Both the position numbers and the translations under genes were made by a program. Positions 199-22,976 of a stretch of DNA of 55,102 nucleotides are shown here, piece by piece. This DNA comes from Alphaproteobacteria bacterium. Lineage in GTDB: Bacteria > Pseudomonadota > Alphaproteobacteria > UBA9219 > RFNS01. Below the pieces are notes generated by a model, which ran no database searches, had not been told where the DNA came from, and saw only the letters and a list, made by a program, of their open reading frames with translations. The stretch spans positions 1-55,102 of the forward strand of contig RFNS01000061.1 in the NCBI GenBank assembly GCA_009927055.1, written 5' to 3'. Within the stretch, counting starts at the first letter, position 1; each line of letters begins with the position of its first letter.

Positions 199-864
199 TC
201 ATAACATTCCAATGGTGCTGATCGTACCACCTTCAAGGCTCGGCGTCGCCCCGCTGCCGCGGGGCCGGGCTCTACTCGCGCGAGTACTGAGCGCGCTCAC
301 GGAGCCCCGCGAGAAAAGAACGCGGGTCTTGCCTGCATCCTTCAACCCCTCAATATCGCGTCTGGCGGTCTTGATCGCCACGCAAAAATGCCCCGTGATG
401 TCTTCCGCGCAGGCCTTATTTTTACGCTTCAAAAGAATCAAAAACCAGCGTTGACGGTCGTTAAACGATTTTAATGGGACATTTATAGGGACATTTTCAC
501 TGACAGTTTTGTCGGTAAAACCGTCATTTTCTGGCTCCGGCACCGTCGCCAGGGCATGATGAGAAAGCAGCTGAAAAGCGTCCCAAAGATCCTCCCCGCC
601 GATCTGCTGCAGGATGAATTTTAGGATGCTGGGAGATGAGCGCGCGAGCAGCAGTAAATGTCCGGAAGATGGCGCATTTCTAGCCTCGTACCAGTTTTTG
701 ATCGCCCGTAAATTGCTGCTGGTCAGCTGGCCAATCCGCTTGATGGCAGATGCCGTCTCTCCAAAGTCGCGGCGCAATGCTGCGGCCACGATTTTCGCTA
801 GTTCTTCGTCCGAAATTGCCCTTGGTTTGATGGGAAAACTTCGGTCCATTTTTGAATGAGACAT
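199..864 (-). pseudogene. HTH regulator (N-terminal XRE-like, C-terminal winged helix), 3' end apparently truncated at ~330
   Basis: ATG with AAGGAG RBS; RAIKNWYEARNAPSSGHL XRE-like helix; VAIKTARRDIEGLKDAG wHTH motif, then an unrelated Arg/Ser/Gly-rich tail where the DNA becomes GC-richer. Divergent from the recombinase. Confidence 0.55.
248..326. repeat. Cluster of GC-rich palindromes (REP/MITE-like or element end)
   Basis: GCCCCGC/GCGGGGC (248-265); GGGCTC (267-272)...GAGCCC (302-307) enclosing perfect palindromes TACTCGCGCGAGTA (273-286) and TGAGCGCGCTCA (288-299); CCCGCG/CGCGGG (306-326). Confidence 0.55.
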
Positions 865-951
865 TTGTATCGCTCCTTGGTTAGGATTCCAAAGAGCGGT
901 CGTGCGGCTGGCGCGCGGCAGGGTGTTGTCAAAAACGGAAAGAACAAACGG

Positions 952-2517
952 ATGGAAAGGTGGAATAACTCGGCAGGGTCAACGGACGGGCAACAGCGCC
1001 GCCGTGCGGCCATGTATGTGCGTATGTCGACTGACCACCAGAAATATTCGACCGAAAACCAGGCCGACGCGATCCGCGAGTATGCCGCCCATCGCCAGAT
1101 AGACATCGTCAAGACCTACACCGATTCCGGTAAAAGCGGCCTTAAGCTGGATGGACGCGACGCCCTTCAAAATCTGATTGCCGACGTGCAGTCGGGTTCT
1201 AAAGATTATAGCGTCATTCTCGTTCTTGACGTGACCCGCTGGGGACGGTTTCAGGATGCGGATGAAAGTGCCTATTATGAATATCTTTGCCGCCGCGCTG
1301 GCATTGATGTTCAGTATGTCGCCGAGCAGTTCGAGAACGACGGCAGTCCCGTATCCACAATCGTCAAAGGCGTTAAGCGTGCCATGGCAGGTGAATATAG
1401 CCGTGAATTATCCGGCAAGGTGTTCGCAGGACAATGCCGCCTGATCGAGATGGGCTTTCGTCAGGGTGGCCCTGCCGGATACGGATTGCGCCGTGTGCTA
1501 GTGGATGAAAACCGCCAACCCAAAGGTACGCTCAAGCGCGGAGAACATAAATCCTTACAGACCGACCGCGTTGTCCTGGTCGCGGGGCCAGACGCGGAAG
1601 TCGATACGGTACGCTGGATCTACCGCGCTTTCACCGAGGAAGGTTTGCAGGAAACCGAGATCGCCCACGCCCTCAATAACAAAGGCGTTTTGACCGATCT
1701 TGGCCGTGAATGGACGCGCGGTGTCGTTCACGGCATTCTCACCAACGAAAAATATATCGGCAACAACGTCTTTAACCGCCGTTCCTTCAAGCTCAAGAAA
1801 CGCCGTGTCGTCAATTCGCCTGATATGTGGGTGCGCGCGGACGGCGTGTTCGAAGCGATCATTGAGGCGCGATATTTCTATACGGCGCAAGGCATCATCC
1901 GTGAACGCAGCCGCAAGTTCAGCGACGATGAAATGCTCACTAGGCTACGCACACTGCATGAAAAACAAGGCTGGCTGTCCGGCATCCTGATCGATGAAAC
2001 CGATGATATGCCCTCCAGCAGCGCCTATGCCCATCGTTTCGGCGGGCTGACCCAAGCCTATAAACTGATCGGTTATGATCCTGGGCGTGACCAGCGTTAT
2101 ATCGAGGACAATAAATATCTGCGAAAAATGTATCCCGATGTCGTGGAAGGCGTGATCCGCAATATCCAGTCACTGGGCGGAAAAGTTCACCGTGAGGTCG
2201 GCAACGACTTTCTGATTGTCAATAACGAGATCAAGGTTTCGCTTGTTATTTGCCGCTGCGCCCAGACTCCCGCTGGCACCAACCGCTGGAAGATCCAGTT
2301 GGACAGCAGCCTCATGCCGGATATCACCATCGCGGTGCGCATGGAGCCGGATAACCGCCAGATCCTCGATTATTATCTGATCCCTGCGATCGATGTTGAA
2401 AACCCACAGATCCGCCTCGCTGAAAACAACCATCTTTCGCTGGATGCCTATCGCTTTGACGATCTGGAGCCGTTCTTCATGCTGGCCGAGCGTGCCGCCT
2501 TGCCGGAGGCCGCATGA
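952..2517 (+). CDS. Large serine recombinase (resolvase + recombinase domains, atypical C-terminus)
   Basis: YVRMST catalytic Ser, DSGKSG, DVTRWGR, GGPAGYG, ILTNEKYIG. Start moved from 856 to 952 because 856-864 overlaps the divergent gene. Confidence 0.92.
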   Translation: MERWNNSAGSTDGQQRRRAAMYVRMSTDHQKYSTENQADAIREYAAHRQIDIVKTYTDSGKSGLKLDGRDALQNLIADVQSGSKDYSVILVLDVTRWGRFQDADESAYYEYLCRRAGIDVQYVAEQFENDGSPVSTIVKGVKRAMAGEYSRELSGKVFAGQCRLIEMGFRQGGPAGYGLRRVLVDENRQPKGTLKRGEHKSLQTDRVVLVAGPDAEVDTVRWIYRAFTEEGLQETEIAHALNNKGVLTDLGREWTRGVVHGILTNEKYIGNNVFNRRSFKLKKRRVVNSPDMWVRADGVFEAIIEARYFYTAQGIIRERSRKFSDDEMLTRLRTLHEKQGWLSGILIDETDDMPSSSAYAHRFGGLTQAYKLIGYDPGRDQRYIEDNKYLRKMYPDVVEGVIRNIQSLGGKVHREVGNDFLIVNNEIKVSLVICRCAQTPAGTNRWKIQLDSSLMPDITIAVRMEPDNRQILDYYLIPAIDVENPQIRLAENNHLSLDAYRFDDLEPFFMLAERAALPEAA

Positions 2518-3431
2518 CGAAAGGCAAAGGCACCCGCGCTTCCGAGATTAAGATGATCCAGATCGATCGGATCAATATCCTCAATCCCCGTGTACGAAAC
2601 CAGAAGGTGTTTCTGGAGATCGCCACCAATATGACCCAGGTCGGTATGAAACGTCCGATCACCGTGACGCCAAGCCGCTCCAAGGTTGACGGCAAGGATT
2701 ACGACCTGATCTGCGGCCAGGGCCGGATCGAAGCCTTCACAGCCTGCGGGCAAACCGAGATTCCCGCCATCGTGATTGATGCCAGCGAGGAACAGGCATT
2801 GATCATGAGTTTGGTCGAAAACCTTGCCCGCCGTCAGCATCGCGCCACCGACCTTCTGCAAGGTATCGAAATCCTACAAGAGCAAGGCTATGACGCGCCC
2901 ACCATTGCTGCCAAGACAGGATTGTCGCTCGACTACGTTAACGGCGTTCTGAATTTGATGGAGCGTGGCGAAGAACGGCTGCTCTCTGCTGTTGAAGCCG
3001 GACACATGCCGATCTCACTGGCGATCCGCGTTGCAGAAAACCCAGAAGACGAACAACGCGCCTTGCATGAGGCGTATGAATCCAAGCAACTGCGCGGCAA
3101 TCGTCTGTTGCTGGCCAAACGCCTGATCGATACCAGAAAGCGGCGCGGTAAAGCCTTCGCCGATGAGCGCAAGCGTGGCAAACGCGATAAGGGTGATAAA
3201 GCACTTTCCGTACAAGACGTGTTGAAAGTTTACCAGCGGGAGGTTGATCGCAAACGTCTCTTAACCCGCAAGGCCGATGCTGTTGCCAACCGCATGTTGT
3301 TCGTCACTGAAGCCTTACGCGAATTATTGCAGGACGAGCATTTCAGCAATCTTCTGCGTGCGGAAGGTTTGACGACGCTGCCGAAGCCTCTTGCCGGATT
3401 GATAACGGAAAAAGGTCACGGTCATGGCTAA
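2514..3431 (+). CDS. ParB/Spo0J-like protein 1
   Basis: GMKRPITV, LICGQGRIEA (GxxRxxA), SLVENLAR, HTH (APTIAAKTGLSLDYV); ATGA overlap with recombinase stop. Confidence 0.88.
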   Translation: MTKGKGTRASEIKMIQIDRINILNPRVRNQKVFLEIATNMTQVGMKRPITVTPSRSKVDGKDYDLICGQGRIEAFTACGQTEIPAIVIDASEEQALIMSLVENLARRQHRATDLLQGIEILQEQGYDAPTIAAKTGLSLDYVNGVLNLMERGEERLLSAVEAGHMPISLAIRVAENPEDEQRALHEAYESKQLRGNRLLLAKRLIDTRKRRGKAFADERKRGKRDKGDKALSVQDVLKVYQREVDRKRLLTRKADAVANRMLFVTEALRELLQDEHFSNLLRAEGLTTLPKPLAGLITEKGHGHG

Positions 3432-4353
3432 AATCCCACCGCAAAAACCCAAACTCCCCAAGGGCGAGATCAAGGCAGGCTTCGATGAGACCACCATTGA
3501 TCTCAAAATCGATCAGATCGTCTCGATCAAGTTGGTCACACCCGCCGCACGCAAAAGCCCAAAATACCACCAGATATTAGCGTCCATCCGTGAGGTCGGC
3601 ATTATCGAGCCGCCCGTGGTCAGCCGCGACCCGCATGCGCGCAGTAAATACATTCTGCTCGATGGCCATATGCGGATCGAGGCACTCAAAGAGCTTGGTG
3701 AAACTGAAGTCACTTGTCTGGTGTCAACGGATGATGAAGCCTTTACCTACAACAAGCATATCAACCGTCTCTCCACCGTGCAGGAACACCGGATGATCCT
3801 GCGGGCGATTGAGCGCGGCGTGCCGGAATCCAAGATCGCTGCTGCCCTTAATATCGACACCCGCAGCATTGCCACCAGGCGTGATCTATTGAACGGCATT
3901 TGTTCGGAAGCGGCTGATCTTTTGAAAGACAAGATGGTACCGATCGCCACGTTCCCGATCTTGAAACGCATGAAATCCTTCCGCCAGATCGAGGCTGCAA
4001 CGCTCATGAATGATGCGGGCGTGTATTCCAAAACCTATGCCCGCGCTTTATTGGCGGCCACTCCGAAGGATCAGTTGACCGATCCCAACAAGCCGAAAAA
4101 GATCAAGGGACTGGATGAAGATCAGATGGCACGCATGGAAAGCGAGATGGAGAGCCTGCAGCGTGAATATCGCCTGATTGAGGAAAATTACGGCAAGGAT
4201 GTTTTGAGCCTGACTTTGACCAAGGGCTATCTCGGATCATTGCTCGGCAATGCCAAAGTGGTGCGTTATCTCGCCCAGAACCATCGGGACATTCTTAATC
4301 AATTCCAGAAAATCGCTGATATGACCTCTCTGGCCAAGGAGAGCGCGGCGTAA
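3424..4353 (+). CDS. ParB-like protein 2 (RepB partition C-terminal type)
   Basis: SIREVGIIEPPVV, LLDGHMRIEA, HTH (PESKIAAALNI); overlaps previous gene by 8 nt. Confidence 0.85.
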   Translation: MAKIPPQKPKLPKGEIKAGFDETTIDLKIDQIVSIKLVTPAARKSPKYHQILASIREVGIIEPPVVSRDPHARSKYILLDGHMRIEALKELGETEVTCLVSTDDEAFTYNKHINRLSTVQEHRMILRAIERGVPESKIAAALNIDTRSIATRRDLLNGICSEAADLLKDKMVPIATFPILKRMKSFRQIEAATLMNDAGVYSKTYARALLAATPKDQLTDPNKPKKIKGLDEDQMARMESEMESLQREYRLIEENYGKDVLSLTLTKGYLGSLLGNAKVVRYLAQNHRDILNQFQKIADMTSLAKESAA

Positions 4354-4632
4354 ACGACTGAAGCGAGCGGCTCGGCCTACTATTGTATGTTATCGGCCTT
4401 CGAGCGCCTGCATAAGGGGACCGAGACCCTTCAAGCGTCGGGACTGCGGGAGAAGCCGTCTGCCCACGGGCAGATATGGAGCAAGCGCAGTGGCAGGGAT
4501 GGCGGCGACCCCGTTCGGAGCCTGCCAGGCTGGCGGTCATAGGCCAGCCGATCGGCTGTTTTTATTGGAAAATTGGTCGAATTGTCGCGCGATCCTCTGA
4601 TTGAGGGCTTCAGATCGGCCAGAGGGTCGCGC
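4354..4632. ncRNA. Putative structured non-coding element downstream of the ParB pair
   Basis: Consecutive stems: 4370-4374/4401-4405, 4443-4448/4486-4491 enclosing 4459-4474, 4491-4497/4521-4527, 4528-4534/4543-4549, palindrome 4545-4558 followed by T5, 13-bp stem 4587-4599/4620-4632. No credible ORF. Confidence 0.45.
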
Positions 4633-4641
4633 TTGGGTGTT

Positions 4642-4669
4642 GAGGGATAGCGACTTTTCTAACGTATTA
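4642..4669 (+). promoter_or_regulatory. ECF (CnrH-like) promoter, copy 1
   Basis: GAGGGAT-N14-CGTATTA upstream of the anti-sigma gene; same motif and spacing at 6054 and 13981. Confidence 0.75.
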
Positions 4670-4697
4670 CTGGTATAGTCGGAAAGAGGTGAACATC

Positions 4698-5042
4698 ATG
4701 TCGAATGATAAACTTGATAAATTAATCAAAGGGTTGGTTGATTCTCAACCCCGCTTTGAGCGGCTGCAGGCGGTAGAAAGCCGCGTCTGGCAAGCCATCA
4801 ACAAACGACGCGCGGATATGCCGCGCAACGTCGTCGAAGGCTGGTTGGCAAGCCTGTTCGTGCCAGAATACCGGATGGCGTCACTGTCTTTTGCCTTGAT
4901 CGTCGGAGTTTTCGCCGCGACCTTAAGCGTTTCAAATCCGCAACCCGCCAATGCGGCGCAGGCGCTGAACCTGCACGTCTTTTCTTCAAATTATGGTATA
5001 ACTTCTACGGTTATTCTTGCCAAGAACGGGGGTAAAACCTGA
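4698..5042 (+). CDS. Membrane anti-sigma factor (CnrY-like position)
   Basis: Small protein with one TM segment (SLSFALIVGVFAATLSV); first gene of the Y-X-H-like triad; GAGG RBS before ATG 4698 (GTG 4689 is an alternative start). Confidence 0.6.
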   Translation: MSNDKLDKLIKGLVDSQPRFERLQAVESRVWQAINKRRADMPRNVVEGWLASLFVPEYRMASLSFALIVGVFAATLSVSNPQPANAAQALNLHVFSSNYGITSTVILAKNGGKT

Positions 5043-5479
5043 TGCGCTCCTATCAAAAGGAAATCCTTTATTTCATCGTCATCGCGCTCGTGGGCTTTGG
5101 CGCTTTTTATGCCTGCGGTAATTTTTTTAAAGCGCCTCATCATGGCTCGGTCGATGCTCACGTCTGGCTACACGAGCAGATCGGCATTACAGCGGAGCAG
5201 GATCAAAAGCTCTCTGAAATCGAAAATAAATTTGCCGACAAGCAACGCGTGTTGCGTGAAAAAATCCATGTCGGCAACCTAGAGCTTGCAGCCGCCATGC
5301 TCGAAGATAAGGCGTTTTCCGAGCGTGTCGCTGCTGCAGTCGAGCGTATTCATCACGCTCAAGGGGAACTGCAAAAGGCGACGATTGAGCATATATTTGA
5401 CATGCAGACCATATTAACGCCGCAGCAAGCGGAAAAGCTCAATAAGTTAGCCGCAGATGCCCTTGTTCAGAACCCATAG
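5042..5479 (+). CDS. Periplasmic heavy-metal sensor (CnrX/NccX-like)
   Basis: N-terminal anchor, HxxxH (AHVWLH), HxxxM (EHIFDM), LTPQQ motif of the CpxP/ZraP/CnrX fold. Confidence 0.82.
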   Translation: MRSYQKEILYFIVIALVGFGAFYACGNFFKAPHHGSVDAHVWLHEQIGITAEQDQKLSEIENKFADKQRVLREKIHVGNLELAAAMLEDKAFSERVAAAVERIHHAQGELQKATIEHIFDMQTILTPQQAEKLNKLAADALVQNP

Positions 5480-6062
5480 AACCCCAAAAGAGAATACCGC
5501 CGATGAGGATTACGCGCTCGTCAAGCGATTGAGTTCTGGTGACGATTTTGCGCTCAACGAGATCATGCAACGCTATAAAGAGCGCGTCTATCGTCTGTCC
5601 TGGCGTTATGTGGGCAACGAAGAAGCGGCGCTCGACGTGACGCAGGAAACTTTCACGAAACTTTACTTTAATATCGAAAAATATGACCCAGCTTACAAAT
5701 TCAGCACCTGGGTCTTTCAGATCGCGGTCAATCTGTGCCGAGACCATCTTCGCAAAAACAAGAACCATGCCCGCAATGTTTCTTATGATGCGTTAAGCGA
5801 AAGCGGCTCCGGCGATTGGCAGCAGAGCGAAGAGAATATCGAGGCCAGCTTTCAATCGAAGCAGCAGCTTGCCCACTTACGGCAAGAGATCGAACGGTTG
5901 CCGGATACCCTTAAAGAAGCCTTTATTTTGTTCGCTCTTGAGGAGCGGACACAAAACGAATGCGCTGAAATCCTTAATGTTTCGGCCAAAACCGTGGAAA
6001 CCCGCGTCTATCGCGCGCGCAAGATTTTATCCGAAAAACTGCACTTTTATTCTGAGGGATAG
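5457..6062 (+). CDS. ECF sigma factor (CnrH/NccH-like)
   Basis: Region 2 (DVTQETF, FSTWVFQIAVNLCRD) and region 4 (ECAEILNVSAKTVETRVYRAR). Confidence 0.92.
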   Translation: MPLFRTHRTPKENTADEDYALVKRLSSGDDFALNEIMQRYKERVYRLSWRYVGNEEAALDVTQETFTKLYFNIEKYDPAYKFSTWVFQIAVNLCRDHLRKNKNHARNVSYDALSESGSGDWQQSEENIEASFQSKQQLAHLRQEIERLPDTLKEAFILFALEERTQNECAEILNVSAKTVETRVYRARKILSEKLHFYSEG

Positions 6063-6081
6063 ACAGATTTAAGCCGTATTA
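6054..6081 (+). promoter_or_regulatory. ECF promoter, copy 2 (ahead of efflux operon)
   Basis: GAGGGAT-N14-CGTATTA overlapping the sigma stop codon. Confidence 0.75.
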
Positions 6082-6113
6082 GCTTCATGAGACCAGAAAA
6101 AGGTGGGACTTTC

Positions 6114-7349
6114 ATGAAGAAATCAATGATATGGCAATTAGCGATTGCGGCGATCCTGTTCGCCTCGCCTGCGTATGCGGACCCCTCCGCTTTAACCCTT
6201 GACCAAGTCATCAAGGAAAGCCTGCAAAAGAACACCAGCCTGTTCCGCGCCCAGCGTGATTACGACGATAAGATGGCCACGGCCACGGAAACTACCTTAT
6301 TGGATAATCCTGAACTTCAGGTCGACGTTGTGCGCGATAAAGGTGAAGGCGGTACGGGGACGGATCTGGAATTTACCCAGCCTTTGAAATTCTCCCAGCT
6401 TTCCGGCGCAAGGGGCGGCTATGCCCAAGCTCTGGCGAACGTGGCCAGCATGGAGCAAAAATACGAAATACTGAAAGTCATCAATGAAACTACGGTGCTT
6501 TACACGCAAGTCTGGCTGCTCTCCGAGCGTAAAAAACTATACGAGAATTATGCCGATGACGCCGATAAAATGAAAAAACTAGTGAAGGAGTCAGCGGGGC
6601 AAGGTCAGACCAGCCCTGCGGCCTCGCATCTCTTTTCATCGGACGCCGCCAAGTTGCGGGCGGATGCGAATGCCGTTGACGCGGAGCTGCGTCAGGTGCG
6701 TACGGAACTCGCGCGATTGACGGGACGCAGCTTCCAACAGGCAAAACTGGAGCGTCCGGCTTTCGTGGTGGTGCCGGAAGATACCGAGCGGCTTTTGGCT
6801 TTCGCGCAGACGCAATCCAATCTTAGAAACGTGATCAAAAATCGTATTCAGGCGGCGGAGCGCCGTTTGAGCGTCGCCCAGCAGGACGCCGCGATGCCAG
6901 AATTCGGGCCGCGCGCATTTTATTCGCGTTCCCCCAACGGCGATGACCAGTCCTACGGCATAGGCGTTGCCTTGCGGATTCCATTGTGGAACCAGAACGA
7001 CGCCGAGCGCAAACGAGCCAATGCGGAACTGCGCCAGGCCAAGTCCGAGGCCGACCTTTATGCGGGATTGCCGCAGCAAGACGTGATCGGGGAATTACAA
7101 CAGAGCGCGTCCGCGCTTCAGTCTCGCGCGGACAGTTATTTTGACAGCATTCTGCCTGGCTACCGCAAATCCTATGAGTTGACGCGCAGCATGTTCCGTC
7201 AGGGGCAAGCAGACGCGCTTGAAGTTTGGCAAGTGCGCGAGAAGCTACTTTCCAGCGAAAATGAAGGGCTTGACGCGCTGGCGCAGGCCGTGAATGCGCG
7301 CGGGGCTTTGGAAGTGGAGCTGGGCGGAAAAATAGAGGAAGTCAGATAA
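6114..7349 (+). CDS. TolC/CzcC-family outer membrane factor
   Basis: Signal peptide, DNPELQ, GVALRIPLWNQN, helical repeats; precedes MFP and RND genes. Confidence 0.88.
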   Translation: MKKSMIWQLAIAAILFASPAYADPSALTLDQVIKESLQKNTSLFRAQRDYDDKMATATETTLLDNPELQVDVVRDKGEGGTGTDLEFTQPLKFSQLSGARGGYAQALANVASMEQKYEILKVINETTVLYTQVWLLSERKKLYENYADDADKMKKLVKESAGQGQTSPAASHLFSSDAAKLRADANAVDAELRQVRTELARLTGRSFQQAKLERPAFVVVPEDTERLLAFAQTQSNLRNVIKNRIQAAERRLSVAQQDAAMPEFGPRAFYSRSPNGDDQSYGIGVALRIPLWNQNDAERKRANAELRQAKSEADLYAGLPQQDVIGELQQSASALQSRADSYFDSILPGYRKSYELTRSMFRQGQADALEVWQVREKLLSSENEGLDALAQAVNARGALEVELGGKIEEVR

Positions 7350-8362
7350 TGAAAAAGTTTTTGATCACATCGGCTCTTGTCGCGGTCCTTGGTTTATCCA
7401 CACCCGCGATTGCCCATGAAGGACATGCCGAAGCGCCAGGCGAAGAAAGTGCGGGTGGCGCGGCTACAGTTTTGACGCTGTCAGATACGGCGATCAATAA
7501 TCTCGGCATCCAGACGGTCAAGGCAACCATCGCACCACGGGCAACAACGGTAGATGTGAACGGGATCGTCGAGTTTCTGCCGGAACGCCAAGCCATCGCC
7601 ACATCGCGCGCGGCGGGCCGCGTCTCTGAAATCCACGTCAAGGTGGGTGAGAAAGTGGCTAAGGGCCAGAGCCTTCTGACCATCCAGCCGATCTTCGTCG
7701 GCAGCTCTCCCGTATCGATCTCGTCGCCGATCGACGGCTATGTCACCAAGCAAAACGTCGTTTTGGGACAATCCGTCACGCCGGAGGCGGGATTGATGGA
7801 AATTGGCGACTCCTCGGAAGTTCTGGTGCGCGGCGTCATGTATGAAACGCCAGACGTTGCCAAAGTTCAAGTCGGCCAAAATGTCAGCGTCAATAGCAGC
7901 CTGATCGGCAATACGCCGCTACAGGGCAAGGTGCAGCGCATGGACGGTGCCTATGATCGCGGCAGCCGCACACTAAACGTCTATGCCCTGGTTGAAAACC
8001 CTGATCGCAAGCTGCTTGCCAATATGCAGGTCGTCCTCTCCGTCGAAGTGAGCGAGCCTGCCGATATTTTGACCGTTCCCGTCAAAGCCATTCTGGGCGA
8101 GAGCGGTGAACAATTCATCTTTGTAAAAAATGGCAATGAGTTTGAGCGCCGGAGCGTCAAACTGGGTGCGAAATTCGGCGCGGAGCGCGAAGTCTTGGAA
8201 GGTGTTTTCCCCGACGAGGAAGTCGTGACGGTCGGAAACTACCAGCTGCAATTCGCTAAGTCAGCTGAACCCAAAAAAGATGCCGCCACGACAAAAGACA
8301 AAAAAGATGTCCCTGCGGTGGAAGGCAAGAAGGAAGACGACGGTCACGGTCATGAGCATTGA
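7349..8362 (+). CDS. RND membrane fusion protein (CzcB-like), His-rich termini
   Basis: GRVSEIHVKVGEKVAKGQ lipoyl motif, SPIDGYV, VPVKAI; AHEGH N-terminus and GHGHEH C-terminus. Confidence 0.9.
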   Translation: MKKFLITSALVAVLGLSTPAIAHEGHAEAPGEESAGGAATVLTLSDTAINNLGIQTVKATIAPRATTVDVNGIVEFLPERQAIATSRAAGRVSEIHVKVGEKVAKGQSLLTIQPIFVGSSPVSISSPIDGYVTKQNVVLGQSVTPEAGLMEIGDSSEVLVRGVMYETPDVAKVQVGQNVSVNSSLIGNTPLQGKVQRMDGAYDRGSRTLNVYALVENPDRKLLANMQVVLSVEVSEPADILTVPVKAILGESGEQFIFVKNGNEFERRSVKLGAKFGAEREVLEGVFPDEEVVTVGNYQLQFAKSAEPKKDAATTKDKKDVPAVEGKKEDDGHGHEH

Positions 8363-8395
8363 TCGCCGCACGACCCGTGAACAGAGGATTATAAA

Positions 8396-11300
8396 ATGCT
8401 GAATGCAATCATCCAATTTTCTTTGAAGAACAGGCTTCTGGTCGTCGCGGCCTCGGCTTTGTTGATGGTCTACGGCGTGTTCGTGATCAGCAAACTGCCC
8501 GTCGACGTGTTTCCTGACTTGAACCGCCCGACCGTGACGATTTTCACCGAGGCTGAAGGTCTTGCGCCGGAAGAAGTTGAAGCCTTGGTCACTTGGCCTC
8601 TCGAAACGGCGGTCAATGGATCGACGGGGGTTGAGCGGGTGCGCTCGGCTTCCGCCATCGGTCTTTCGATTGTCTGGGTTGAGTTTGGCTGGGATACGAA
8701 TATCTATACCGCCCGTCAAATCGTGGCGGAGAAACTGCAACAGGCGCAGGAAACCCTGCCGCAGGACGTACGTCCCGTCATGGGGCCGATTTCCTCGATC
8801 ATGGGCGAGATCATGCTGGTTGGCTTGACCAGCGAGAACCCGAAGATCGGCGGCATGGATTTGCGCACGATTGCCGAGTGGGATATTCGCAACCGGATCC
8901 TTTCCATCTCCGGCATTTCGCAAGTCTCGGTGATCGGCGGTGAGCTGAAGCAGTATCAGGTGCTGGTTGATCCGTTGAAGCTTAAAAACTATGGCGTCAC
9001 GCTGCACGATGTCGAGGCCACGATTGAAGGATCGAACATCAATGCGACGGGCGGCTTCCTGTTGTCTGATTATCAGGAAAGCCTGATCCGCAACGTCGCC
9101 AGGGTCAAAACCATCGAAGATCTGGCAAAATCACCACTGCCCAAAGAAAACGGCAGCCCAACGCCACTGACTCTTGATCAAGTTGCTGATATCAAGCTCG
9201 GCGGGCCGCTCGCCAAGCGCGGGGATGCAAGCGTCAACGGTCAATCCGCCGTCATCCTCTCTATTCAAAAGCAGCCAGGCGCCGACACGATCAAACTCAC
9301 CAAGGCGGTCGAGGCGGAACTCGCCAGCATTCAAAAGACATTGCCGGAAGGCGTTAAAATCCACGGCGATATATTCAAGCAAGGAACCTTTATCGAACGG
9401 GCAATCAAGAACGTCGAAGAGGCTTTGCGCGACGGAGCAATCCTTGTAGCCATCGTTCTTTTCCTTTTTTTGCTCAACTTCCGCACCACCTTTATCACTT
9501 TGACCGCTATACCGTTGTCGTTTGTCTTGACCGCCATCGTCTTCAAGTATTTCGGGTTGAGCATCAACACCATGACCTTGGGCGGGCTGGCCGTCGCCAT
9601 CGGTGAGCTGGTTGATGATGCCATTGTCGACGTCGAAAACGTCTTCCGGCGTTTACGCGAGAACCGCCATGCCGAAAAATCGCGCAACCCTTTGCAAGTG
9701 ATCTTCGAAGCCTCCAGCGAAGTACGAAACTCCATCGTTTTCGCCACCATCATCGTGGTGCTGGTCTTTATCCCGCTCTTTGCAATGGGCGGCATCGAAG
9801 GCAAGATATTCCTACCGCTTGGCATAGCCTATATCACCTCCATCGTCGCGTCCTTGTTCGTCTCGCTGACGCTGACGCCCGCGCTTTGCTCCTACCTTTT
9901 GCCGAATATGAAGCGGATGAGCGCAGAGCATGACGGCTGGCTGATCCGTATGATCAAGGGAGGGCAAAAGCGCGTTCTGAACTTTGCTTTTCCCCATAGC
10001 CGATTAGTGCTGACCTTGGTCGCGTTGATCACGTTCGGGGTCATGGCGATGGTGCCGTTCTTCGGCAAGGAATTTTTACCCCAGTTCAACGAAGGATCGG
10101 TGACGATCAATATCCTGACGCCGCCTGGCACCAGCTTGGCCGAGTCAAACCGCATCGGCACGATTGCCGAGAACCTGATCCGTCAAGTGCCGGAAGCGTC
10201 CGAAACAGGACGCCGCACGGGCCGCGCCGAACGTGACGACCATGCGGAAGGCGTACATTCGAGCGAGATCGAAGTTGAGCTAAAGGAATCTGAACGCTCC
10301 CGTGGCGATATTCTGGCCGATATTCGTGATCGTCTGGATCAAATTCCAGGGATCGCGGTCAATATCGGGCAACCGATCTCTCACCGCATCGACCATATGA
10401 TGAGCGGTGTCCGTGCGCAGATGGCCATCAAACTTTTTGGCACCGATCTTGATGTCTTACGCGCCAAAGCAGAGGAAATCCGCCAAGCCATGAGCGAGGT
10501 CGAGGGCGTGGTCGACCTATCCGTGGAAAAACAAGTCCTGATCCCGCAGGTGCATGTACTGTTCGACCGCGAGAAGGCAGCGTCTTACGGCCTGTTGTCG
10601 GGCGAAGCGGCTGAGTATGCCGAACTTGCGATGCAAGGCAAGGCCGTGGGACAAGTTCTGGACGGGCAGCGCACCTATGATATCGTCATGCGCCTCTCGG
10701 ATGCCGCCCGTAATGATGTCGAAGCGATCAAACAAATTCCGGTCGATACGAAAGACGGCAATGTCGTACCGCTCCAGGCCATTGCGACCGTGCAGGACGC
10801 CAAGGGGCCGAATATCATCAACCGCGAGAACGCGCAACGTCGGATCGTGATACAGGCCAACGTCTCCGACCGCGATCTGGTAGGCGTGGTACAGAAGGTG
10901 CAAGCCGCCATCGACAGTAAGGTGCATCTGCCGCAAGGCTATTACGTCACCTATGGCGGTCAGTTTGAAAGTCAGGCCAGTGCCTCGCGCCTGATCGCGC
11001 TTTTGAGCCTGTTCTCCCTCGCGGGCATGTTCATGGTTCTCTATGTCCACTTCAAGAGCGCCAATCTTGCCCTGCAGGTCATGACGTCCATCCCGCTTGC
11101 CTTTATTGGCGCGGTGATCGGCGTTTGGCTGTCCGGCGGCGTGTTCTCGATTGCCACCATGGTCGGTTTTGTAACGCTGACAGGCATTGCCGCCCGCAAC
11201 GGTATCATGATGATCGCTCACTATATCCACCTGATGGAGCATGAAGGCGAGAAGTTCGATCTGGCTATGGTGTATCGCGGCACGTCCGAGCGGATCATCC

Positions 11301-11518
11301 CCGTGTTGATGACCGCGCTGACCGCCTCTCTGGCTCTCATCCCTCTGGTGATCGCCGCCGACGAGCCAGGCCGCGAATTGTTGCATCCGGTCGCCGTGGT
11401 CATCTTCTGCGGTCTATTCTCCAGTACCTTGCTTGACCTTACGGTGCGTCCGCTTGTGTTCTGGAAGTTCGGCAAAAAGCCAATCTCAACCTTGTTACCC
11501 CAAGCCATAACCCCATAA
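8396..11518 (+). CDS. Heavy-metal efflux RND permease (CzcA/CusA family)
   Basis: 1040 aa; LPVDVFPDL, GELVDDAIVDVEN, GIAARNGI, PVLMTALTA. Confidence 0.95.
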   Translation: MLNAIIQFSLKNRLLVVAASALLMVYGVFVISKLPVDVFPDLNRPTVTIFTEAEGLAPEEVEALVTWPLETAVNGSTGVERVRSASAIGLSIVWVEFGWDTNIYTARQIVAEKLQQAQETLPQDVRPVMGPISSIMGEIMLVGLTSENPKIGGMDLRTIAEWDIRNRILSISGISQVSVIGGELKQYQVLVDPLKLKNYGVTLHDVEATIEGSNINATGGFLLSDYQESLIRNVARVKTIEDLAKSPLPKENGSPTPLTLDQVADIKLGGPLAKRGDASVNGQSAVILSIQKQPGADTIKLTKAVEAELASIQKTLPEGVKIHGDIFKQGTFIERAIKNVEEALRDGAILVAIVLFLFLLNFRTTFITLTAIPLSFVLTAIVFKYFGLSINTMTLGGLAVAIGELVDDAIVDVENVFRRLRENRHAEKSRNPLQVIFEASSEVRNSIVFATIIVVLVFIPLFAMGGIEGKIFLPLGIAYITSIVASLFVSLTLTPALCSYLLPNMKRMSAEHDGWLIRMIKGGQKRVLNFAFPHSRLVLTLVALITFGVMAMVPFFGKEFLPQFNEGSVTINILTPPGTSLAESNRIGTIAENLIRQVPEASETGRRTGRAERDDHAEGVHSSEIEVELKESERSRGDILADIRDRLDQIPGIAVNIGQPISHRIDHMMSGVRAQMAIKLFGTDLDVLRAKAEEIRQAMSEVEGVVDLSVEKQVLIPQVHVLFDREKAASYGLLSGEAAEYAELAMQGKAVGQVLDGQRTYDIVMRLSDAARNDVEAIKQIPVDTKDGNVVPLQAIATVQDAKGPNIINRENAQRRIVIQANVSDRDLVGVVQKVQAAIDSKVHLPQGYYVTYGGQFESQASASRLIALLSLFSLAGMFMVLYVHFKSANLALQVMTSIPLAFIGAVIGVWLSGGVFSIATMVGFVTLTGIAARNGIMMIAHYIHLMEHEGEKFDLAMVYRGTSERIIPVLMTALTASLALIPLVIAADEPGRELLHPVAVVIFCGLFSSTLLDLTVRPLVFWKFGKKPISTLLPQAITP

Positions 11519-11529
11519 AGGAGACCATC

Positions 11530-12012
11530 ATGAAAAAACTACTACTGACCGCCGCTATCATTGCCTTGACAGGGTTACAGCCCGCTCTGGCTCATGAAGG
11601 CGAAGATCATTCAAAAACGGAACAACATGGCCAACACGAAACCTCGGCCATTCATGACGAGGCCACCCAGATAACGACCAAAGACGATGCCCTCAAAGTA
11701 ATGCGTGACGGCGTGTCGTTTATGGATGAAGCCGTAAACAAACACAAAGCTGACTTATTTGCCGGTGGAAAAGTAATGGATCAACTCCATGATGTGACGG
11801 TTCATATTGAAGAAGCGGCCAAGTTTCTTGAAAGTGACACTGCAAATATAGATCCAGCAAAGAAGGCTCGTTTGTCCAGCGCAATCAAACAACTCGTAAA
11901 AACCACAACGGACTTCCATGTCGCTACGCACGATAAGAATATCGATAAAACCTTGGTTGAACTCAAAAAAACCCAAGGCGCGTTGAAACTGGTCGAATCT
12001 GCTTTGAAATAG
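11530..12012 (+). CDS. Exported His-rich helical protein, putative metal binder
   Basis: Signal peptide then AHEGEDH...HGQHE; amphipathic helices; AAGGAG RBS. Confidence 0.7.
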   Translation: MKKLLLTAAIIALTGLQPALAHEGEDHSKTEQHGQHETSAIHDEATQITTKDDALKVMRDGVSFMDEAVNKHKADLFAGGKVMDQLHDVTVHIEEAAKFLESDTANIDPAKKARLSSAIKQLVKTTTDFHVATHDKNIDKTLVELKKTQGALKLVESALK

Positions 12013-12022
12013 GGAGGACGTT

Positions 12023-12277
12023 ATGAAGGGAATATTACTCGCTTTAGCTGCAGGAACGCTGTTTCTTGCAGGTTGCACTACGGTTCCAGCACCTTCTCTT
12101 GAAGAGCAGATGCAGGGAAAAACACAGGCAGAACGCGCGGTTTTTCTTAAAGAAAAATGCCTTGAAGAAGCCTCGTATCGTTACATGGGCAAATACCGGA
12201 GCAACAGCTCAGGTCATGTGTCCCGCATGACGGATATCTGCAATGCCATGTCGGGCGAGATGGCAAAAACCAAATAA
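12023..12277 (+). CDS. Small lipoprotein
   Basis: Lipobox LAGC; two further Cys; GGAGG RBS. Confidence 0.75.
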   Translation: MKGILLALAAGTLFLAGCTTVPAPSLEEQMQGKTQAERAVFLKEKCLEEASYRYMGKYRSNSSGHVSRMTDICNAMSGEMAKTK

Positions 12278-12292
12278 TCGAGGAGAAAACTC

Positions 12293-13174
12293 ATGAAACT
12301 ACTTCACGCATTGCTCATTACTACGATCTTGACCACAGGGGCCGCGGCCTATGCCGCAGGCGATCATGCTGGCGGTCACACTTCCAACGCTCCCGCCGCC
12401 ACAAGCATGTCTCATGATGCGATGGGGCATGGTGGCGAGAGAATGGAAGTCATGGCCGCACAAAATATGGTCAAGCTGGCGCTTGAGCCAGCCGCTCCTT
12501 TGCAGGCGGGAAAGACCACGCAAGTGACCGTAAAGCTGAATGCTGTTGCCGACGGCAAACCTCTGACGCTGGATGATCTTAAGGAAGCGCATACCAAGAA
12601 ACTGCACTTGCTGGTCGTCGATCCGACGCTGACTGATTACCATCACATTCATCCTGTGGCGGGTGAAAAGCCTGGCGAGTATGTATTCGATTTCACGCCG
12701 CTTAAAAACGATACTTATCGCGTTTGGGCGGATGTGATCCCCGTTGCCACGGACAAGCAGGAGTATGTGCAAACCGACATGGGAACGCCCGCCAAGGAAA
12801 AGGCCAGCATCGATAAGGCCACGAGCATGATGGCAACGGTGGACGGATACACCTTTACCCTGGCATTGGACGGAGAGCCGAAAGCGGGCAGCCCCGTGAT
12901 GGGCAACGTCACCGTTACCAAGGACGGTCAGCCTTTTACCGGATTGGAGCCTGTGATGGGTGCTTTCGCGCATGTGGTCGGATTCACCGAAGATTATAAT
13001 TCCGTCCTCCATGTCCACCCGATGGGCAAAGAGCCGACCAACGATGCCGAGCGTGGCGGGCCGAAGCTGGAGTTCCATATCGAGCCTGAGAAAGCGGGCT
13101 TTGTGAAGCTATTTACCCAAGTCCGTATTGGCGGGAAGGATATTTTCGCGCCGTTCGGAATAACCGTGAAATAA
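12293..13174 (+). CDS. Exported two-domain His/Met-rich metal-binding protein
   Basis: Signal peptide; duplicated H...HxHP motifs (LHLLVV..YHHIHP; AHVVG..LHVHP). Confidence 0.75.
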   Translation: MKLLHALLITTILTTGAAAYAAGDHAGGHTSNAPAATSMSHDAMGHGGERMEVMAAQNMVKLALEPAAPLQAGKTTQVTVKLNAVADGKPLTLDDLKEAHTKKLHLLVVDPTLTDYHHIHPVAGEKPGEYVFDFTPLKNDTYRVWADVIPVATDKQEYVQTDMGTPAKEKASIDKATSMMATVDGYTFTLALDGEPKAGSPVMGNVTVTKDGQPFTGLEPVMGAFAHVVGFTEDYNSVLHVHPMGKEPTNDAERGGPKLEFHIEPEKAGFVKLFTQVRIGGKDIFAPFGITVK

Positions 13175-13195
13175 CCCCCGAAAAAGGAGAATACG

Positions 13196-13702
13196 ATGAA
13201 GACGTTTTTACTGGCACTTATGATGGCCTTGACCACACTTGCTCCCGCGATGGCTGCGGATACCAGCCATGCACATGATAGCGCTTGGCTTAAACCTACC
13301 GAGGCGCAGTATGTGTGTATGATGAACAATAAGGTTTTCGATAAACCGCAAATTGCGATCGAAGTTGAAGGCAAGACCTATTACGGCTGCTGCCCGATGT
13401 GCGCGGATAAGCTGAAGAACGACGTTTCTTTGCGCACGGCAACCGATCCTGTTAGCGGGAAACCTGTCGATAAGGCCAGTGCCGTCATCGGTGCGGATAC
13501 GCATGGCATGACATACTACTTCGAGAGCAAGGAAAACTTTGATAAATTCGCCAGCGGCCCGATGCCTCCTATGGACGGCGGCATGAAAATGCACGAGATG
13601 AAGGGTGGCATGATGATGCAGGAAGAGAAAAATGGGGCGACAAAGAGCGTCGATCCAGCGCCTTCCTCCAAGAACGATGAAAATCATCAACAGCACCATT
13701 AA
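13196..13702 (+). CDS. Exported TRASH/YHS-domain protein
   Basis: VCMMNN, YYGCCPMC, TDPVSGKPVD, YYFES; Met/His-rich tail. Confidence 0.82.
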   Translation: MKTFLLALMMALTTLAPAMAADTSHAHDSAWLKPTEAQYVCMMNNKVFDKPQIAIEVEGKTYYGCCPMCADKLKNDVSLRTATDPVSGKPVDKASAVIGADTHGMTYYFESKENFDKFASGPMPPMDGGMKMHEMKGGMMMQEEKNGATKSVDPAPSSKNDENHQQHH

Positions 13703-13713
13703 GGGAGAACGTC

Positions 13714-13941
13714 ATGCACCACGATAAAGACTGCGCACACGACCACAAGGGACCGTTGTCATGGATTCTTTCATGGAAAGGCATCGCCCTGATCCTGGTT
13801 CTGGCTGGTATCAGCTACTATCTTTTGACCGTCCACTTGGCGCATCTGGCCGTGGCGTTGCCGTATCTTTTCCTGTTGGCTTGTCCGTTGATGCATATCT
13901 TCGGACATAAACATAATCACGGCGACCATAAAAAGGACTGA
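13714..13941 (+). CDS. DUF2933-like small membrane protein
   Basis: Two TM segments, LLACPLMHIFGH, His-rich ends. Confidence 0.82.
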   Translation: MHHDKDCAHDHKGPLSWILSWKGIALILVLAGISYYLLTVHLAHLAVALPYLFLLACPLMHIFGHKHNHGDHKKD

Positions 13942-13980
13942 TCGAGGCAGATATTCCGGCAAAAATAGGCTTTCGCTCTT

Positions 13981-14008
13981 CAGGGATGAGCACTTTCAAA
14001 ACGTATTA
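13981..14008 (+). promoter_or_regulatory. ECF promoter, copy 3
   Basis: CAGGGAT-N14-CGTATTA upstream of the lipoprotein at 14060. Confidence 0.7.
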
Positions 14009-14059
14009 TTAATGTGACGAATGCCTCGTCTCATTAACTCACTGAGAAAGAAGTCTATC

Positions 14060-14287
14060 ATGATGAAGAATATGTCTCTTACGTCGCTTCGTTTGGGAGG
14101 ACTGTTGGCTTTAACTACACTATTGGCCGCATGCGCTGCAACGACGACAACGGCAACGCCCCCTCAAACGCAAAAATATAATAGCCAGGAGTGCAAGCAG
14201 ATGCGTGGACGTGGCGCGATTAATCTCGACCAATACAAAAAATGCATTTACGGCCAGCCATTTGAAGTACTGGATAAAGCATCTTAG
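14060..14287 (+). CDS. Small lipoprotein
   Basis: Lipobox LAAC, Thr-rich linker, two further Cys; exact start uncertain. Confidence 0.65.
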   Translation: MMKNMSLTSLRLGGLLALTTLLAACAATTTTATPPQTQKYNSQECKQMRGRGAINLDQYKKCIYGQPFEVLDKAS

Positions 14288-14391
14288 TTGATAATTGAGG
14301 CGCGTATTTTTTAAATAAAGAGACAAGCCTGCCGATATGCTCCGACAGGCTGTTTATTTTTCTCAAGTCTTGATTACGGCACGTTTTATAC

Positions 14392-14414
14392 TATATACCC
14401 CTATAAGGTATATA
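14392..14414. promoter_or_regulatory. CsoR/RcnR-type operator
   Basis: TATATACC-N7-GGTATATA perfect inverted repeat with C-tract, just upstream of csoR. Confidence 0.78.
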
Positions 14415-14432
14415 ATTGAACGGAGAAACCAG

Positions 14433-14717
14433 ATGCCAAGTCAAAGACACCCATCGCATGAGGCGGAAATCAAACGTCTTAACCGTATCGCTGGGCAGGT
14501 CGAAGGAGTCAAGAAAATGGTCGAGGAAGGCCGTTATTGTCCCGAAATCCTCTCTCAGTTACGGGCCGTGCGCTCGGCGGTCAAGGGGATCGAAACAGAA
14601 ATCCTGCGCCGTCATTTATCGTCCTGCGTGGTGAGCGCCATGCAAGGCGGCGATAAAGCCAGCCGCATGAAATACATCGAGGAAGTCACAAATTTATTCT
14701 CAAAATTCGACGAATAA
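14433..14717 (+). CDS. csoR: CsoR/RcnR metal-sensing repressor
   Basis: RLNRIAGQVEG; Cys (GRYC), His and Cys (HLSSC) give the C-H-C copper fingerprint; GGAG RBS before ATG 14433. Confidence 0.88.
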   Translation: MPSQRHPSHEAEIKRLNRIAGQVEGVKKMVEEGRYCPEILSQLRAVRSAVKGIETEILRRHLSSCVVSAMQGGDKASRMKYIEEVTNLFSKFDE

Positions 14718-14729
14718 GGAATATCAGCC

Positions 14730-16961
14730 ATGACCGATCATTCACATCATCACGACCATAAAAAACTAGACGAAAAACCGTCGCAAGGTTCTTGCTGCGC
14801 GATGCACGGACATGATCATCAGCCGAAGAGAACTCCTGTGGCGGACGTGCCAGCGGGCAGCGTGTATATCTGCCCGATGCATCCGCAAGTTCGCCAAGCT
14901 GGCCCTGGCAATTGCCCGATCTGCGGTATGGCCTTGGAACCGGAAATGATGACGGGGGATGAAGGCCCGAACCATGAGCTGATTGATATGACGCGACGTT
15001 TTTGGATCGGTCTTATGCTTACGCTTCCGGTCTTTATGCTGGAAATGGGTGCGCATTTGACCAATCTCCACTTTGTTACAGGCGCAATGTCCAACTGGAT
15101 ACAGCTTACGCTGGCAACACCCGTCGTATTGTGGGCGGGCTGGCCGTTTTTCACGCGCGGCTGGTCGTCCATAGTATCGCGTAACCTCAACATGTTCACC
15201 CTAATCGCCATCGGCACGGGCGTGGCCTGGCTGTATAGCATCGTGGCCACGCTGATGCCGGATGTTTTTCCTGAAGCCTTCCGCCATCAGGATGGTTCCG
15301 TTCCGGTGTATTTCGAAGCCGCTGCCGTGATTACGGTGTTGGTGTTGCTGGGACAGGTTCTGGAGCTGCGCGCCCGTGAAAAAACGGGTGGTGCAATCAA
15401 GGCTCTTTTAAATTTATCGCCCAAGACTGCTCGTCGGATCAACACGGACGGATCGGAAGAGGATATCCCGCTTGGTCATGTTCACACGGGAGATCTCCTG
15501 CGCGTACGTCCAGGCGAGACGGTTCCCGTTGACGGCATCGTTGTTGAAGGTAAAAGCGCGGTGGATGAATCCATGGTCACGGGCGAATCCATGCCCGTGA
15601 TGAAGGAAAAAGACATCGCCGTGATCGGTGGAACCATGAACCAGACGGGCAGCTTTATCATGAAGGCGGAGCGTGTCGGCGGCGACACCATGCTCTCACG
15701 CATCGTGCAATTGGTCGCAGAGGCGCAGCGTAGCCGCGCGCCCATTCAACGATTGGCAGATCAGGTATCCGCATGGTTTGTGCCTGCGGTCATTCTTGTC
15801 GCCATCGTGGCCTTCGTTGCGTGGTTTGTATTTGGCCCTTCGCCAGCCTTTACTTACGGCTTAATCGCGGCGGTCAGCGTTCTGATCATTGCTTGCCCGT
15901 GCGCCCTCGGCCTTGCCACGCCCATGTCGATCATGGTGGGCGTCGGGCGCGGCGCGCAGGCTGGCGTTTTGATCAAGAACGCCGAAGCTCTGGAGCGCTT
16001 GGAAAAAATCGACACGCTTGTCGTCGACAAGACGGGAACGCTGACCGAAGGAAAGCCAAAAGTAACCCGCATCGTCGCACAAGGTATATCCGAAGATGAT
16101 CTGCTTTTGCTGGCAGCCTCTTTGGAACAGGGAAGCGAACACCCCTTGGCTCATGCCATCGTGGTGGCGGCAAAAGAAAAAGGTTTGTCTATCACTAAAG
16201 CTGACGAGTTTGACTCGCCGACCGGAAAAGGCGTAATTGGCAAAGTGTCTGGCCGCAGGGTGACGCTCGGAAATATCAAGATGATGAACGATCTGGGCGT
16301 AGATGTTTCAGCTTTGGAAGCTGAGGGCAATGATTTACGCAAGGATGGCGCAACAGTGATATTTGCGGCGGTCGACGGCAAAGCGGCGGGGCTTCTCGCC
16401 ATTGCCGATCCGATCAAGAAAACCACGCCGCAAGCGGTCAAAGAATTGCAAAAGGCTGGGATCCGCGTGGTCATGCTCACGGGCGATAATAAAACCACCG
16501 CGCAGGCCGTGGCGCGTCAGTTGGGTATCGACGAGGTCGAAGCCGAAGTATTGCCGGAAGACAAAAGCCGTATCGTCAAAAAATTGCGCGGCGAAGGCCG
16601 TGTTGTGGCTATGGCAGGAGATGGCACGAACGACGCTCCGGCTTTGGCTGCCGCCGATATCGGCATTGCCATGGGAACGGGTACGGACGTGGCCATGGAA
16701 AGCGCAGGCGTAACGCTCCTAAAAGGCGACCTCATGGGGATTGCGCGGGCGCAGAAACTCTCGAAATCCGTGATGCGAAATATCCGCCAGAACCTGTTCT
16801 TCGCCTTTATCTACAACATGGCGGGTGTTCCGGTGGCGGCGGGCGTCCTCTATCCTGTTTTCGGCGTCTTGCTCAGTCCAATCATGGCGGCAGCAGCAAT
16901 GGCGCTGAGTTCCGTGTCTGTGATTGCGAATGCACTAAGGTTAAAGACGGTAAAGCTTTGA
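14730..16961 (+). CDS. copA: Cu(I)/Ag(I) P1B-type ATPase
   Basis: [41 protein letters not shown] and MxxSS. Confidence 0.95.
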
Positions 16962-17002
16962 ACTAATTATAAAATTTTGTCTAATTGGGTACGATTTTGG
17001 GA

Positions 17003-21194: not shown

Positions 21195-21209
21195 GAAAGT
21201 AGGATTATC

Positions 21210-22973: not shown

Positions 22974-22976
22974 GCC

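Follow-up and report, generated by a model that had tools for sequence, protein, structure and literature searches.

A serine recombinase, two ParB-like proteins and a predicted structured RNA in a conserved end module of integrative islands

The DNA analysed here, referred to below as the window, is the whole of a 55,102-bp contig (RFNS01000061.1) from a 2.09-Mb metagenome-assembled genome (MAG) of an alphaproteobacterium. Near its left end lies a serine recombinase gene followed by two genes for ParB-like proteins, a trio that an initial annotation had proposed as part of a mobility system. The module around this trio has five parts: a divergent helix-turn-helix (HTH) regulator, a serine recombinase (SR) and a pair of ParB-like proteins encoded in one SR-ParB1-ParB2 operon, a structured RNA 3' of the operon and a palindromic site. 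SR has 501 aa counted from a conserved Met (1012..2517, + strand). Its frame is open from 856, with position 952 being Met33 of the open frame 856-2517, and homologue alignments favour the start at 1012 (MYVRMSTDHQ). ParB1 (305 aa; 2514..3431, +) has ParB_N and RepB domains and an HTH-like middle part, and ParB2 (309 aa; 3424..4353, +) has a weakly matched ParB_N domain and RepB. The three genes are coupled, as the initial annotation had stated: the SR and ParB1 frames overlap by 4 nt (ATGA) and the ParB1 and ParB2 frames by 8 nt, and this abutting layout is kept in related loci. The RNA motif (4394..4570, +) is predicted to form seven helices including a pseudoknot, and it closes with a terminator-like hairpin (4545-4558, +) as its last helix, which a T run follows. 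A 46-bp palindrome (4587..4632), a candidate protein-binding or recombination site, starts about 20 bases past this last helix.

The stretch from about 280 to 4641 of the window is a conserved module that lies at the end of integrative islands and prophage-like elements of a widespread family. The closest loci share DNA homology with the window from about 318-324 to 4632-4641, and again from 16979 or later. On the right, the conserved module stops about 8 nt past the palindrome, and homology to six related loci (L066 among them) ends at 4632-4641. On the left, the boundary alignment shows that homology ends at the stop codon of HTH221, and nothing further. HTH221, a divergent 221-aa gene (199..864, -), is the outermost conserved gene of the module. 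It has a DeoR-like HTH at residues 137-181 (Pfam HTH_DeoR, E 3.2e-4, with stronger scores for its homologues), and 39 of the 64 genome loci described below have a homologue in divergent orientation upstream of SR. HTH221 probably regulates the module.

A genome scan with ParB2, in which one genome per species was used, returned these 64 loci, 52 of them with at least 2.7 kb of upstream sequence. SR and ParB1 lie upstream of ParB2 in the same order in 49 of the 52 (near full length in 43), and the three exceptions, L044, L049 and L066, are decayed copies. A profile search of IMG/VR gave 92 viral loci; among the best 80 of these, 58 have at least 2.7 kb upstream and SR and ParB1 are present in 57. 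A search of 301 genomes of the window's class with the C-terminal part of SR (the SR tail) found 23 distinct places in 21 genomes, with ParB1 and ParB2 directly downstream in 22 places. The trio is close to obligate, and its homologues are not routinely found without the ParB genes or together with a ParA. No member of a ParA-type family was found among 259 flanking open reading frames (ORFs) of 20 related loci (148 + 111), and neither ParA nor a relaxase was found among the window ORFs scanned, which include a phage-type primase/helicase at a distance of about 35 kb. This agrees with the initial annotation, which had noted that ParA and relaxase genes were absent nearby. Neither repA nor repC is adjacent to the trio in the window or in pAtC58, a plasmid that also carries the trio. 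Full-text searches of the literature, which returned mostly search listings, found no paper on this trio.

The ParB_N domain (PF02195) is matched by ParB1 with an E value of 1.9e-9 and by ParB2 with 1e-3, which is under the cut-off, while RepB (PF07506) is matched by both proteins, in ParB2 with E 5.6e-49. Both carry the GxxRxxA box that had been read in them from the start, as GQGRIEA in ParB1 and GHMRIEA in ParB2, and its G and R are invariant in 24 sequences covering both paralogues. An ENLxR-type box is nearly invariant in ParB1 (VENLARRQH) and degenerate in ParB2, which has YNKHINR at the equivalent place. The names of these boxes and the roles attached to them are those in general use for ParB proteins. 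ParB1 and ParB2 are about 18% identical to each other, and they fall into different PHROGs families, both of unknown function (ParB1, phrog_3951, E 4.7e-35; ParB2, phrog_31451, E 1.9e-57). Relatives of ParB2 numbered 5726 among 8000 candidates scored. The NCBIfam equivalogs for partition proteins and RepB score far under their cut-offs (TIGR03454, 23.6 against 201.5; PRK13866, about 16 against 522), and a sequence search of ParB2 against the PDB gave no match.

The domain order of SR is catalytic, recombinase, HTH and PD-(D/E)xK-like C-terminal. Pfam detects Resolvase (PF00239, E 2.9e-23) and Recombinase (PF07508, E 7.4e-20; residues 247-351 of the 553-aa frame), and the catalytic residues S6, D73, R76 and R79 are invariant across 25 sequences. 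In PHROGs, SR matches the integrase family phrog_95 (E 1.4e-54), and the best NCBIfam match is CcrB, far under its cut-off. A model of the whole protein (predicted local distance difference test score, pLDDT, 71) has its best fold matches in serine integrases (9dxd, 9y66, 4bqq, PhiC31 and Bxb1); by sequence, matches in the PDB run through the catalytic domain only. The invariant catalytic Ser/Asp/Arg residues, the integrase PHROG match and the serine-integrase folds together suggest that SR is an active site-specific recombinase. In two loci, L039 and L041, the SR gene has one in-frame stop each, at codons 414 and 417 of 501, and is otherwise intact.

The part of SR that follows the recombinase domain is atypical. 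The initial annotation had described a recombinase that lacks the usual zinc ribbon and has a different C-terminus of about 200 aa, and this description holds. SR gave no match to PF13408 (Zn_ribbon_recom) at E<=0.01 and no CxxC pairs are visible in an alignment of 25 homologues, and the same Pfam library does detect the zinc ribbon in other serine recombinases of L007 and L014. The last 206 aa, folded separately with a 48-sequence alignment (pLDDT 82), model as an HTH followed by a PD-(D/E)xK-like fold. Residues 6-60 of the tail resemble a TetR-type HTH (Z about 5), and residues 66-202 resemble, by VIA-align, the nuclease I-Ssp6803I (Z 8.1), Hjc (Z 7.3, 7.1, 6.4 and 6.3), RecU (Z 7.0) and NhoI (Z 6.8). 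Foldseek gave weaker rows from the same PD-(D/E)xK superfamily. Since these Z values are middling, we hold the claim for the tail at fold-level resemblance. A conserved (D/E)xK lysine was not seen in the 48-sequence alignment. The tail family numbers 3515 cluster representatives at a threshold of E<=1e-3, falling to 417 at E<=1e-30. The usual zinc-ribbon/coiled-coil part for DNA recognition and control may have been swapped in SR for an HTH and a nuclease-like fold. In a 1.84-billion-protein library, the HTH-like piece of about 60 aa at tail residues 4-64 (window 1906-2088) also occurs as 4 to 7 tandem matches in other proteins of unrelated length, and as 14 in one of them.

Downstream of the operon, similarity continues past ParB2 in 36 of the 60 loci that contain the ParB2 3' end. 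RNAalifold, applied to a 29-sequence alignment of this region, gave 30 base pairs, 15 of them with compensatory changes. The downstream DNA is widely conserved: a covariance model, R1, has matches in 35 of the 67 sources from genomes or plasmids and in 33 of the viral loci (the best 80 of 92), always on the + strand and directly 3' of ParB2. Across 65 distinct sequences, 97.8% of cells are paired and 18 of the 30 pairs change on both sides; none of 500 shuffles reached the observed covariation, and sliding the partners gave at most 6 such pairs. The 65-sequence alignment was fitted to the model, which favours structure, and the first, unfitted alignment gives the same helices. The three-pair helix of the pseudoknot is supported, and the many G-U pairs place the RNA on the + strand. 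Among 151 genomes of the class, all nine strong matches adjoin a ParB2 homologue or remnant; three weak matches lie away from ParB2 and were taken as noise. Rfam gave no match for window 4300-4720 at E<=10, and for the whole window at gathering score it gave only a tRNA; ARAGORN found no tRNA at the motif. The T run after the terminator-like hairpin is present in the window and not in all loci. Assembled contigs of two metatranscriptome runs cover SR and the ParB genes sparsely and at low depth and have no piece over 4394-4570, which says nothing either way. This RNA of about 177 nt, dedicated to the trio, is previously undescribed, with strong covariation and no Rfam family.

The conservation of the trio leaves practically no chance that unrelated genes have simply come to lie next to an unstructured spacer. 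All that speaks for such a chance adjacency is the generic names that the databases give to the genes; it is refuted by gene order, frame overlaps and co-occurrence conserved over more than 100 loci, and by RNA covariation well past its controls.

The palindrome (4587-4632) consists of a conserved 20-nt centre between two 13-nt arms, which covary from locus to locus. It is unique in the window, where 0 are expected by chance. A copy of its centre with two mismatches lies at 54532, and the window contains 12 such matches against 5.7 expected. In several loci the variable cargo begins within about 10 nt of the palindrome. The hairpin-dense region that the initial annotation had seen downstream of the trio is made up of the covarying RNA, its terminator-like hairpin and the palindrome, and goes far beyond chance. 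No repeat was found that joins the left end of the window and the tRNA-Ser region. A different element, a 50-bp near-palindrome with 24-nt arms and a 2-nt centre, lies between a tyrosine integrase gene and SR in both enterobacterial loci examined (L191:13940-13989, from E. coli B, and L165:7339-7388); it was found in 0 of 5 alphaproteobacterial loci examined and is confined to the lineage of the E. coli form.

Beyond the palindrome, the window continues into island cargo. Because the homology of the relatives jumps from 4632-4641 to 16979 or later, the stretch 4642-16978 is an insertion in the window; in six loci, L004 and L066 among them, the module is followed directly by the sequence whose start corresponds to window 16979-17026. 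This insertion is a 12.3-kb metal-resistance cargo (4642..16978, +) that encodes, by Pfam, a sigma factor, a Metal_resist protein, CzcCBA-type efflux, a YHS protein and a P-type ATPase. The ATPase part recurs in L048 at 95-97% identity, inverted and behind another large serine recombinase. The cargo that follows (17158..25688, +; Pfam) encodes a Fic protein, an SNF2 helicase, an N6/N4 DNA methylase and a ResIII-type restriction subunit, and is common to five related loci (L004, L008, L015, L016 and L066). In relatives with other cargo, homology resumes at window 25719-25755, which gives an island of about 25 kb that ends at about 25.7 kb. The left flank of the island is lost at the contig end. 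A deletion derivative in L066 (7576-8491) joins the equivalent of window 750 to that of 4146, with loss of SR, ParB1 and most of ParB2; it retains the RNA, the palindrome and Fic, and then continues into sequence like window 54589-54693 and tRNA-Ser.

The island is followed by a phage-like region (25800-50650) with genes for an endolysin, tail and tape measure proteins, RuvC, a primase/helicase, a Cas4-like exonuclease, Sak4, a CI-like repressor and a serine integrase (47631-48977) with a phrog_11806 partner; a PHROG scan of the region found no head or packaging genes. We considered SR as the integrase of this region and rejected it, the region having its own serine integrase. A signal peptidase II gene and a cation-efflux gene lie between two of the tail genes (34218-35331), in a segment of low G+C (0.45). 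The holin/endolysin segment (25760-26720) is present in two to three or more copies in related genomes, four of which were noted as examples.

The trio is carried on mobile DNA, at island ends. Near-identical copies cross phylum boundaries: proteins 93-99% identical to those of the module come from MAGs labelled Bdellovibrionales, Pseudobdellovibrionaceae, Alphaproteobacteria and Ca. Liberibacter, labels that may be wrong for individual bins. Fourteen DNA runs held at least half of the sampled words, two of them possibly from the source sample. The trio is found on 103 PLSDB plasmids and in prophage-like contigs. No near-identical module DNA was found in plasmids, and single-sequence pattern searches of viral contigs gave nothing. 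In our reading of the IMG/VR table, the trio is usually placed at most a few kb from an end of its contig, with the genes pointing inward. In L020 and L046 the module borders directly on host genes. The neighbours are mostly defence, toxin-antitoxin and resistance genes, the defence genes including restriction-modification, Fic, AbiE, GmrSD, McrBC, MmeI-type enzymes and Qat, as well as an AAA+HNH pair that we read as Septu-like.

Such a neighbourhood could suggest that the trio has a regulatory or defensive role, in which the ParB clamps silence or guard the island, much as KorB- or Noc-like clamps do, or in which the trio itself is an anti-phage or anti-plasmid system with SR as its switch or effector. 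The divergent HTH regulator and the nuclease-like fold of the SR C-terminal domain would fit such a role, and yet we regard it as very unlikely. In PADLOC-DB 2.0, SR, ParB1 and HTH221 are unmatched, ParB2 has only partial matches to ParB-like N-termini (E 4e-4 and 4e-3), and no family passes. The conserved lysine of (D/E)xK nucleases was not seen in the tail alignment, and the position at island ends together with an integrase-family SR fits core functions of a mobile element better.

The reading that we prefer is one of recombination, and we put its probability at roughly 0.45. SR would perform a site-specific recombination step of the island, with the ParB proteins as obligate DNA-loading partners that would replace the lost zinc-ribbon/coiled-coil part, the palindrome as candidate site and the RNA as a regulator or cofactor. 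SR would work only jointly with the ParB1-ParB2 pair, in which ParB1 has the motifs of a cytidine triphosphate (CTP) clamp and ParB2 is degenerate. The pair may load on the module DNA, for which the palindrome is the candidate site, and may bring or license SR. In islands that have no other integrase, SR would carry out integration and excision, and alongside a tyrosine integrase its reaction would be a second one, of an accessory kind. The RNA, which would be produced from the 3' end of the operon, could act as a regulator or cofactor encoded in cis.

Several observations weigh against this reading. Comparisons in which the relatives were too diverged or lacked the flank yielded no attachment (att) site, target duplication or empty site for SR. 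The palindrome is present only in a subset, with its centre motif in 10 of the 60 loci that have the ParB2 3' end. The RNA is detected in about half of the loci. L008, L009 and L011, which are close relatives, lack it, and so does the form of the module found in E. coli, where folding of the 271 nt that follow ParB2 does not surpass that of shuffled sequence (z -0.87). Some E. coli SR genes are interrupted by insertion sequence (IS) elements. Finally, tyrosine integrases are found with the trio in E. coli, where the gene order in the examples, a record titled E. coli B strain C2566 among them, is ssrA, tyrosine integrase, SR, ParB, ParB, IS1; in pAtC58, where the tyrosine integrase gene lies about 28 kb from the trio and the trio-side boundary falls in tRNA-like sequence typical of tyrosine-integrase sites; and near the trio in L024, L026, L036 and L064.

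Compared with SR, ParB1 and ParB2 of the window, the proteins of the E. coli trio show 42%, 35% and 37% identity, respectively. Of 5426 complete E. coli genomes, 658 carry a homologous trio, in every case chromosomally, and others lack it; the allele of the tyrosine integrase (at least 95% identity) occurs in 624 genomes against the 658 with the trio; these two counts are not independent because the carrier genomes are mutually related. The minimal E. coli island comprises the integrase, the trio and IS1, with no replication gene annotated. In strain PEC178, a truncated copy of the integrase and the trio lie inside a composite argW island. IS5, IS3 or IS100 elements lie inside the trio region of several E. 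coli genomes (hits H34-H38 and H74), and in hits H34-H37 SR is annotated in two pieces. The E. coli type of trio DNA (L165) was not found in phage records. A related plasmid remains homologous to pAtC58 up to 16 nt past a small ORF upstream of SR. The sequence at this boundary (L194, pAtC58, 44319-44354, and L193:24083-24118) resembles a tRNA in its T-arm and acceptor end, here on a plasmid. We read the pAtC58 trio and tyrosine integrase as the two ends of one island, of which the trio-side boundary is the one mapped; between them lie Qat genes, an ATP-dependent endonuclease/helicase pair that we take to be Gabija-like, and restriction and Fic genes. The repABC genes of pAtC58 lie about 40 kb from the trio.

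The tyrosine integrases of E. coli and pAtC58 indicate that SR is not always the sole integrase, and they bear directly on the view that the island has SR as its sole integrase, with the ParB pair as a CTP-gated directionality factor in place of the coiled coil. We consider this view distinctly unlikely. It draws on the membership of SR in the serine-integrase family with no zinc ribbon detected, on the strict co-occurrence of the trio, and on loci such as L020, where no other recombinase family was found among the scanned ORFs, which reach 8 kb to either side of the ParB2 match. A Dehalococcoides module, described further below, is a precedent for this view, as it is for the preferred reading. 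Set against these are the tyrosine integrases that accompany the trio in E. coli, pAtC58 and the four further loci, the tRNA-like junction of pAtC58, and the failure to find an attL/attR pair for SR. The initial proposal of a mobility system is upheld as far as a dedicated unit on mobile DNA is concerned, and is not supported where it would make that unit self-sufficient everywhere.

Separate tyrosine integrases would also leave SR free for resolution, as required if the trio serves maintenance. SR would then be a multimer resolvase, and the ParB proteins would partition or tether an excised or episomal form, either without a ParA or by using that of the host; Cre-lox with ParAB of P1 and parCBA of RP4 are models for such an arrangement. 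The RepB domain (PF07506) is a domain of the partition proteins of repABC plasmids, the trio is found on plasmids and in prophage-like contigs, and an intact palindrome within the module fits a res- or parS-like site. We nevertheless judge maintenance to be unlikely. No ParA was found in the 20 loci, the RepB equivalogs of NCBIfam stay far under their cut-offs, the minimal E. coli island without an annotated replication gene would have nothing to partition, and on pAtC58, a large repABC plasmid, the trio lies inside an island far from repABC.

The reading in which SR recombines the island with the ParB pair as loading partners can be extended further, and this extension is speculative and rather improbable: the module may be a new recombination machine in which an SR with a junction-resolvase-like domain in place of its zinc-ribbon/coiled-coil part is targeted or licensed by a heterodimeric, ParA-independent ParB CTP clamp and an RNA, and which captures or exchanges the cargo next to the palindrome, much like an integron for defence and resistance genes, or in which the RNA takes part in the choice or timing of the site. 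Known ParB proteins serve as clamps in partition or silencing. Serine integrases, of which genome engineering makes much use, are known as self-contained enzymes guided by protein. The near-obligate pairing of ParB proteins with a serine recombinase, together with an RNA of their own, would point to a new control of site-specific recombination and a new route for building defence and resistance islands. The module is also common, with the SR tail in 21 of the 301 sampled genomes of the class and the homologous trio in 658 of the 5426 complete E. coli genomes, an E. coli B laboratory strain among them, and the RNA motif is new in its own right.

Compared with known systems, SR shares the catalytic Ser/Asp/Arg residues and the recombinase domain with large serine integrases such as PhiC31, Bxb1, TP901-1 and CcrB. 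Unlike these, it has no detected zinc ribbon, has an HTH and PD-(D/E)xK-like tail, and is followed by two ParB-like genes. ParB/Spo0J, KorB and Noc are CTP-dependent DNA clamps, and both ParB proteins of the module resemble them in having ParB_N and the GxxRxxA box, ParB1 also in its ENLxR-type box and HTH-like region. In contrast to these clamps, the module has no ParA found with it, no parS defined, and two diverged paralogues that are both locked to a recombinase. Both proteins share the Pfam RepB domain with RepB of repABC plasmids (PF07506, TIGR03454), from which they differ in their low TIGR03454 score and in having no RepA or RepC adjacent. The parCBA set of RP4 and Cre-lox with ParAB of P1 likewise combine a site-specific recombinase with 'Par' proteins on a mobile replicon. 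However, the ParB of RP4 is a nuclease of another kind, lacking ParB_N, and P1 includes a ParA, whereas the sets described here have no ParA and, in the minimal islands, no replicon function. The closest described system is the island-end module at ssrA in Dehalococcoides, which contains a CcrB-like serine recombinase of about 540 aa, a single 210-aa ParB-domain protein, an embedded tRNA-like locus and variable cargo, as well as a small serine recombinase (DsiA), a RecF-like protein and a Mom homologue (PMC3146451). It differs from the module analysed here, which has two ParB_N+RepB paralogues of about 300 aa, a single recombinase without a DsiA-like gene or Mom, and an RNA that is not tRNA-like by ARAGORN or Rfam. 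The likeness lies in the architecture of an island-end module with a CcrB-like recombinase, a ParB and a structured locus, at ssrA as for the E. coli trio, rather than in a shared gene set.

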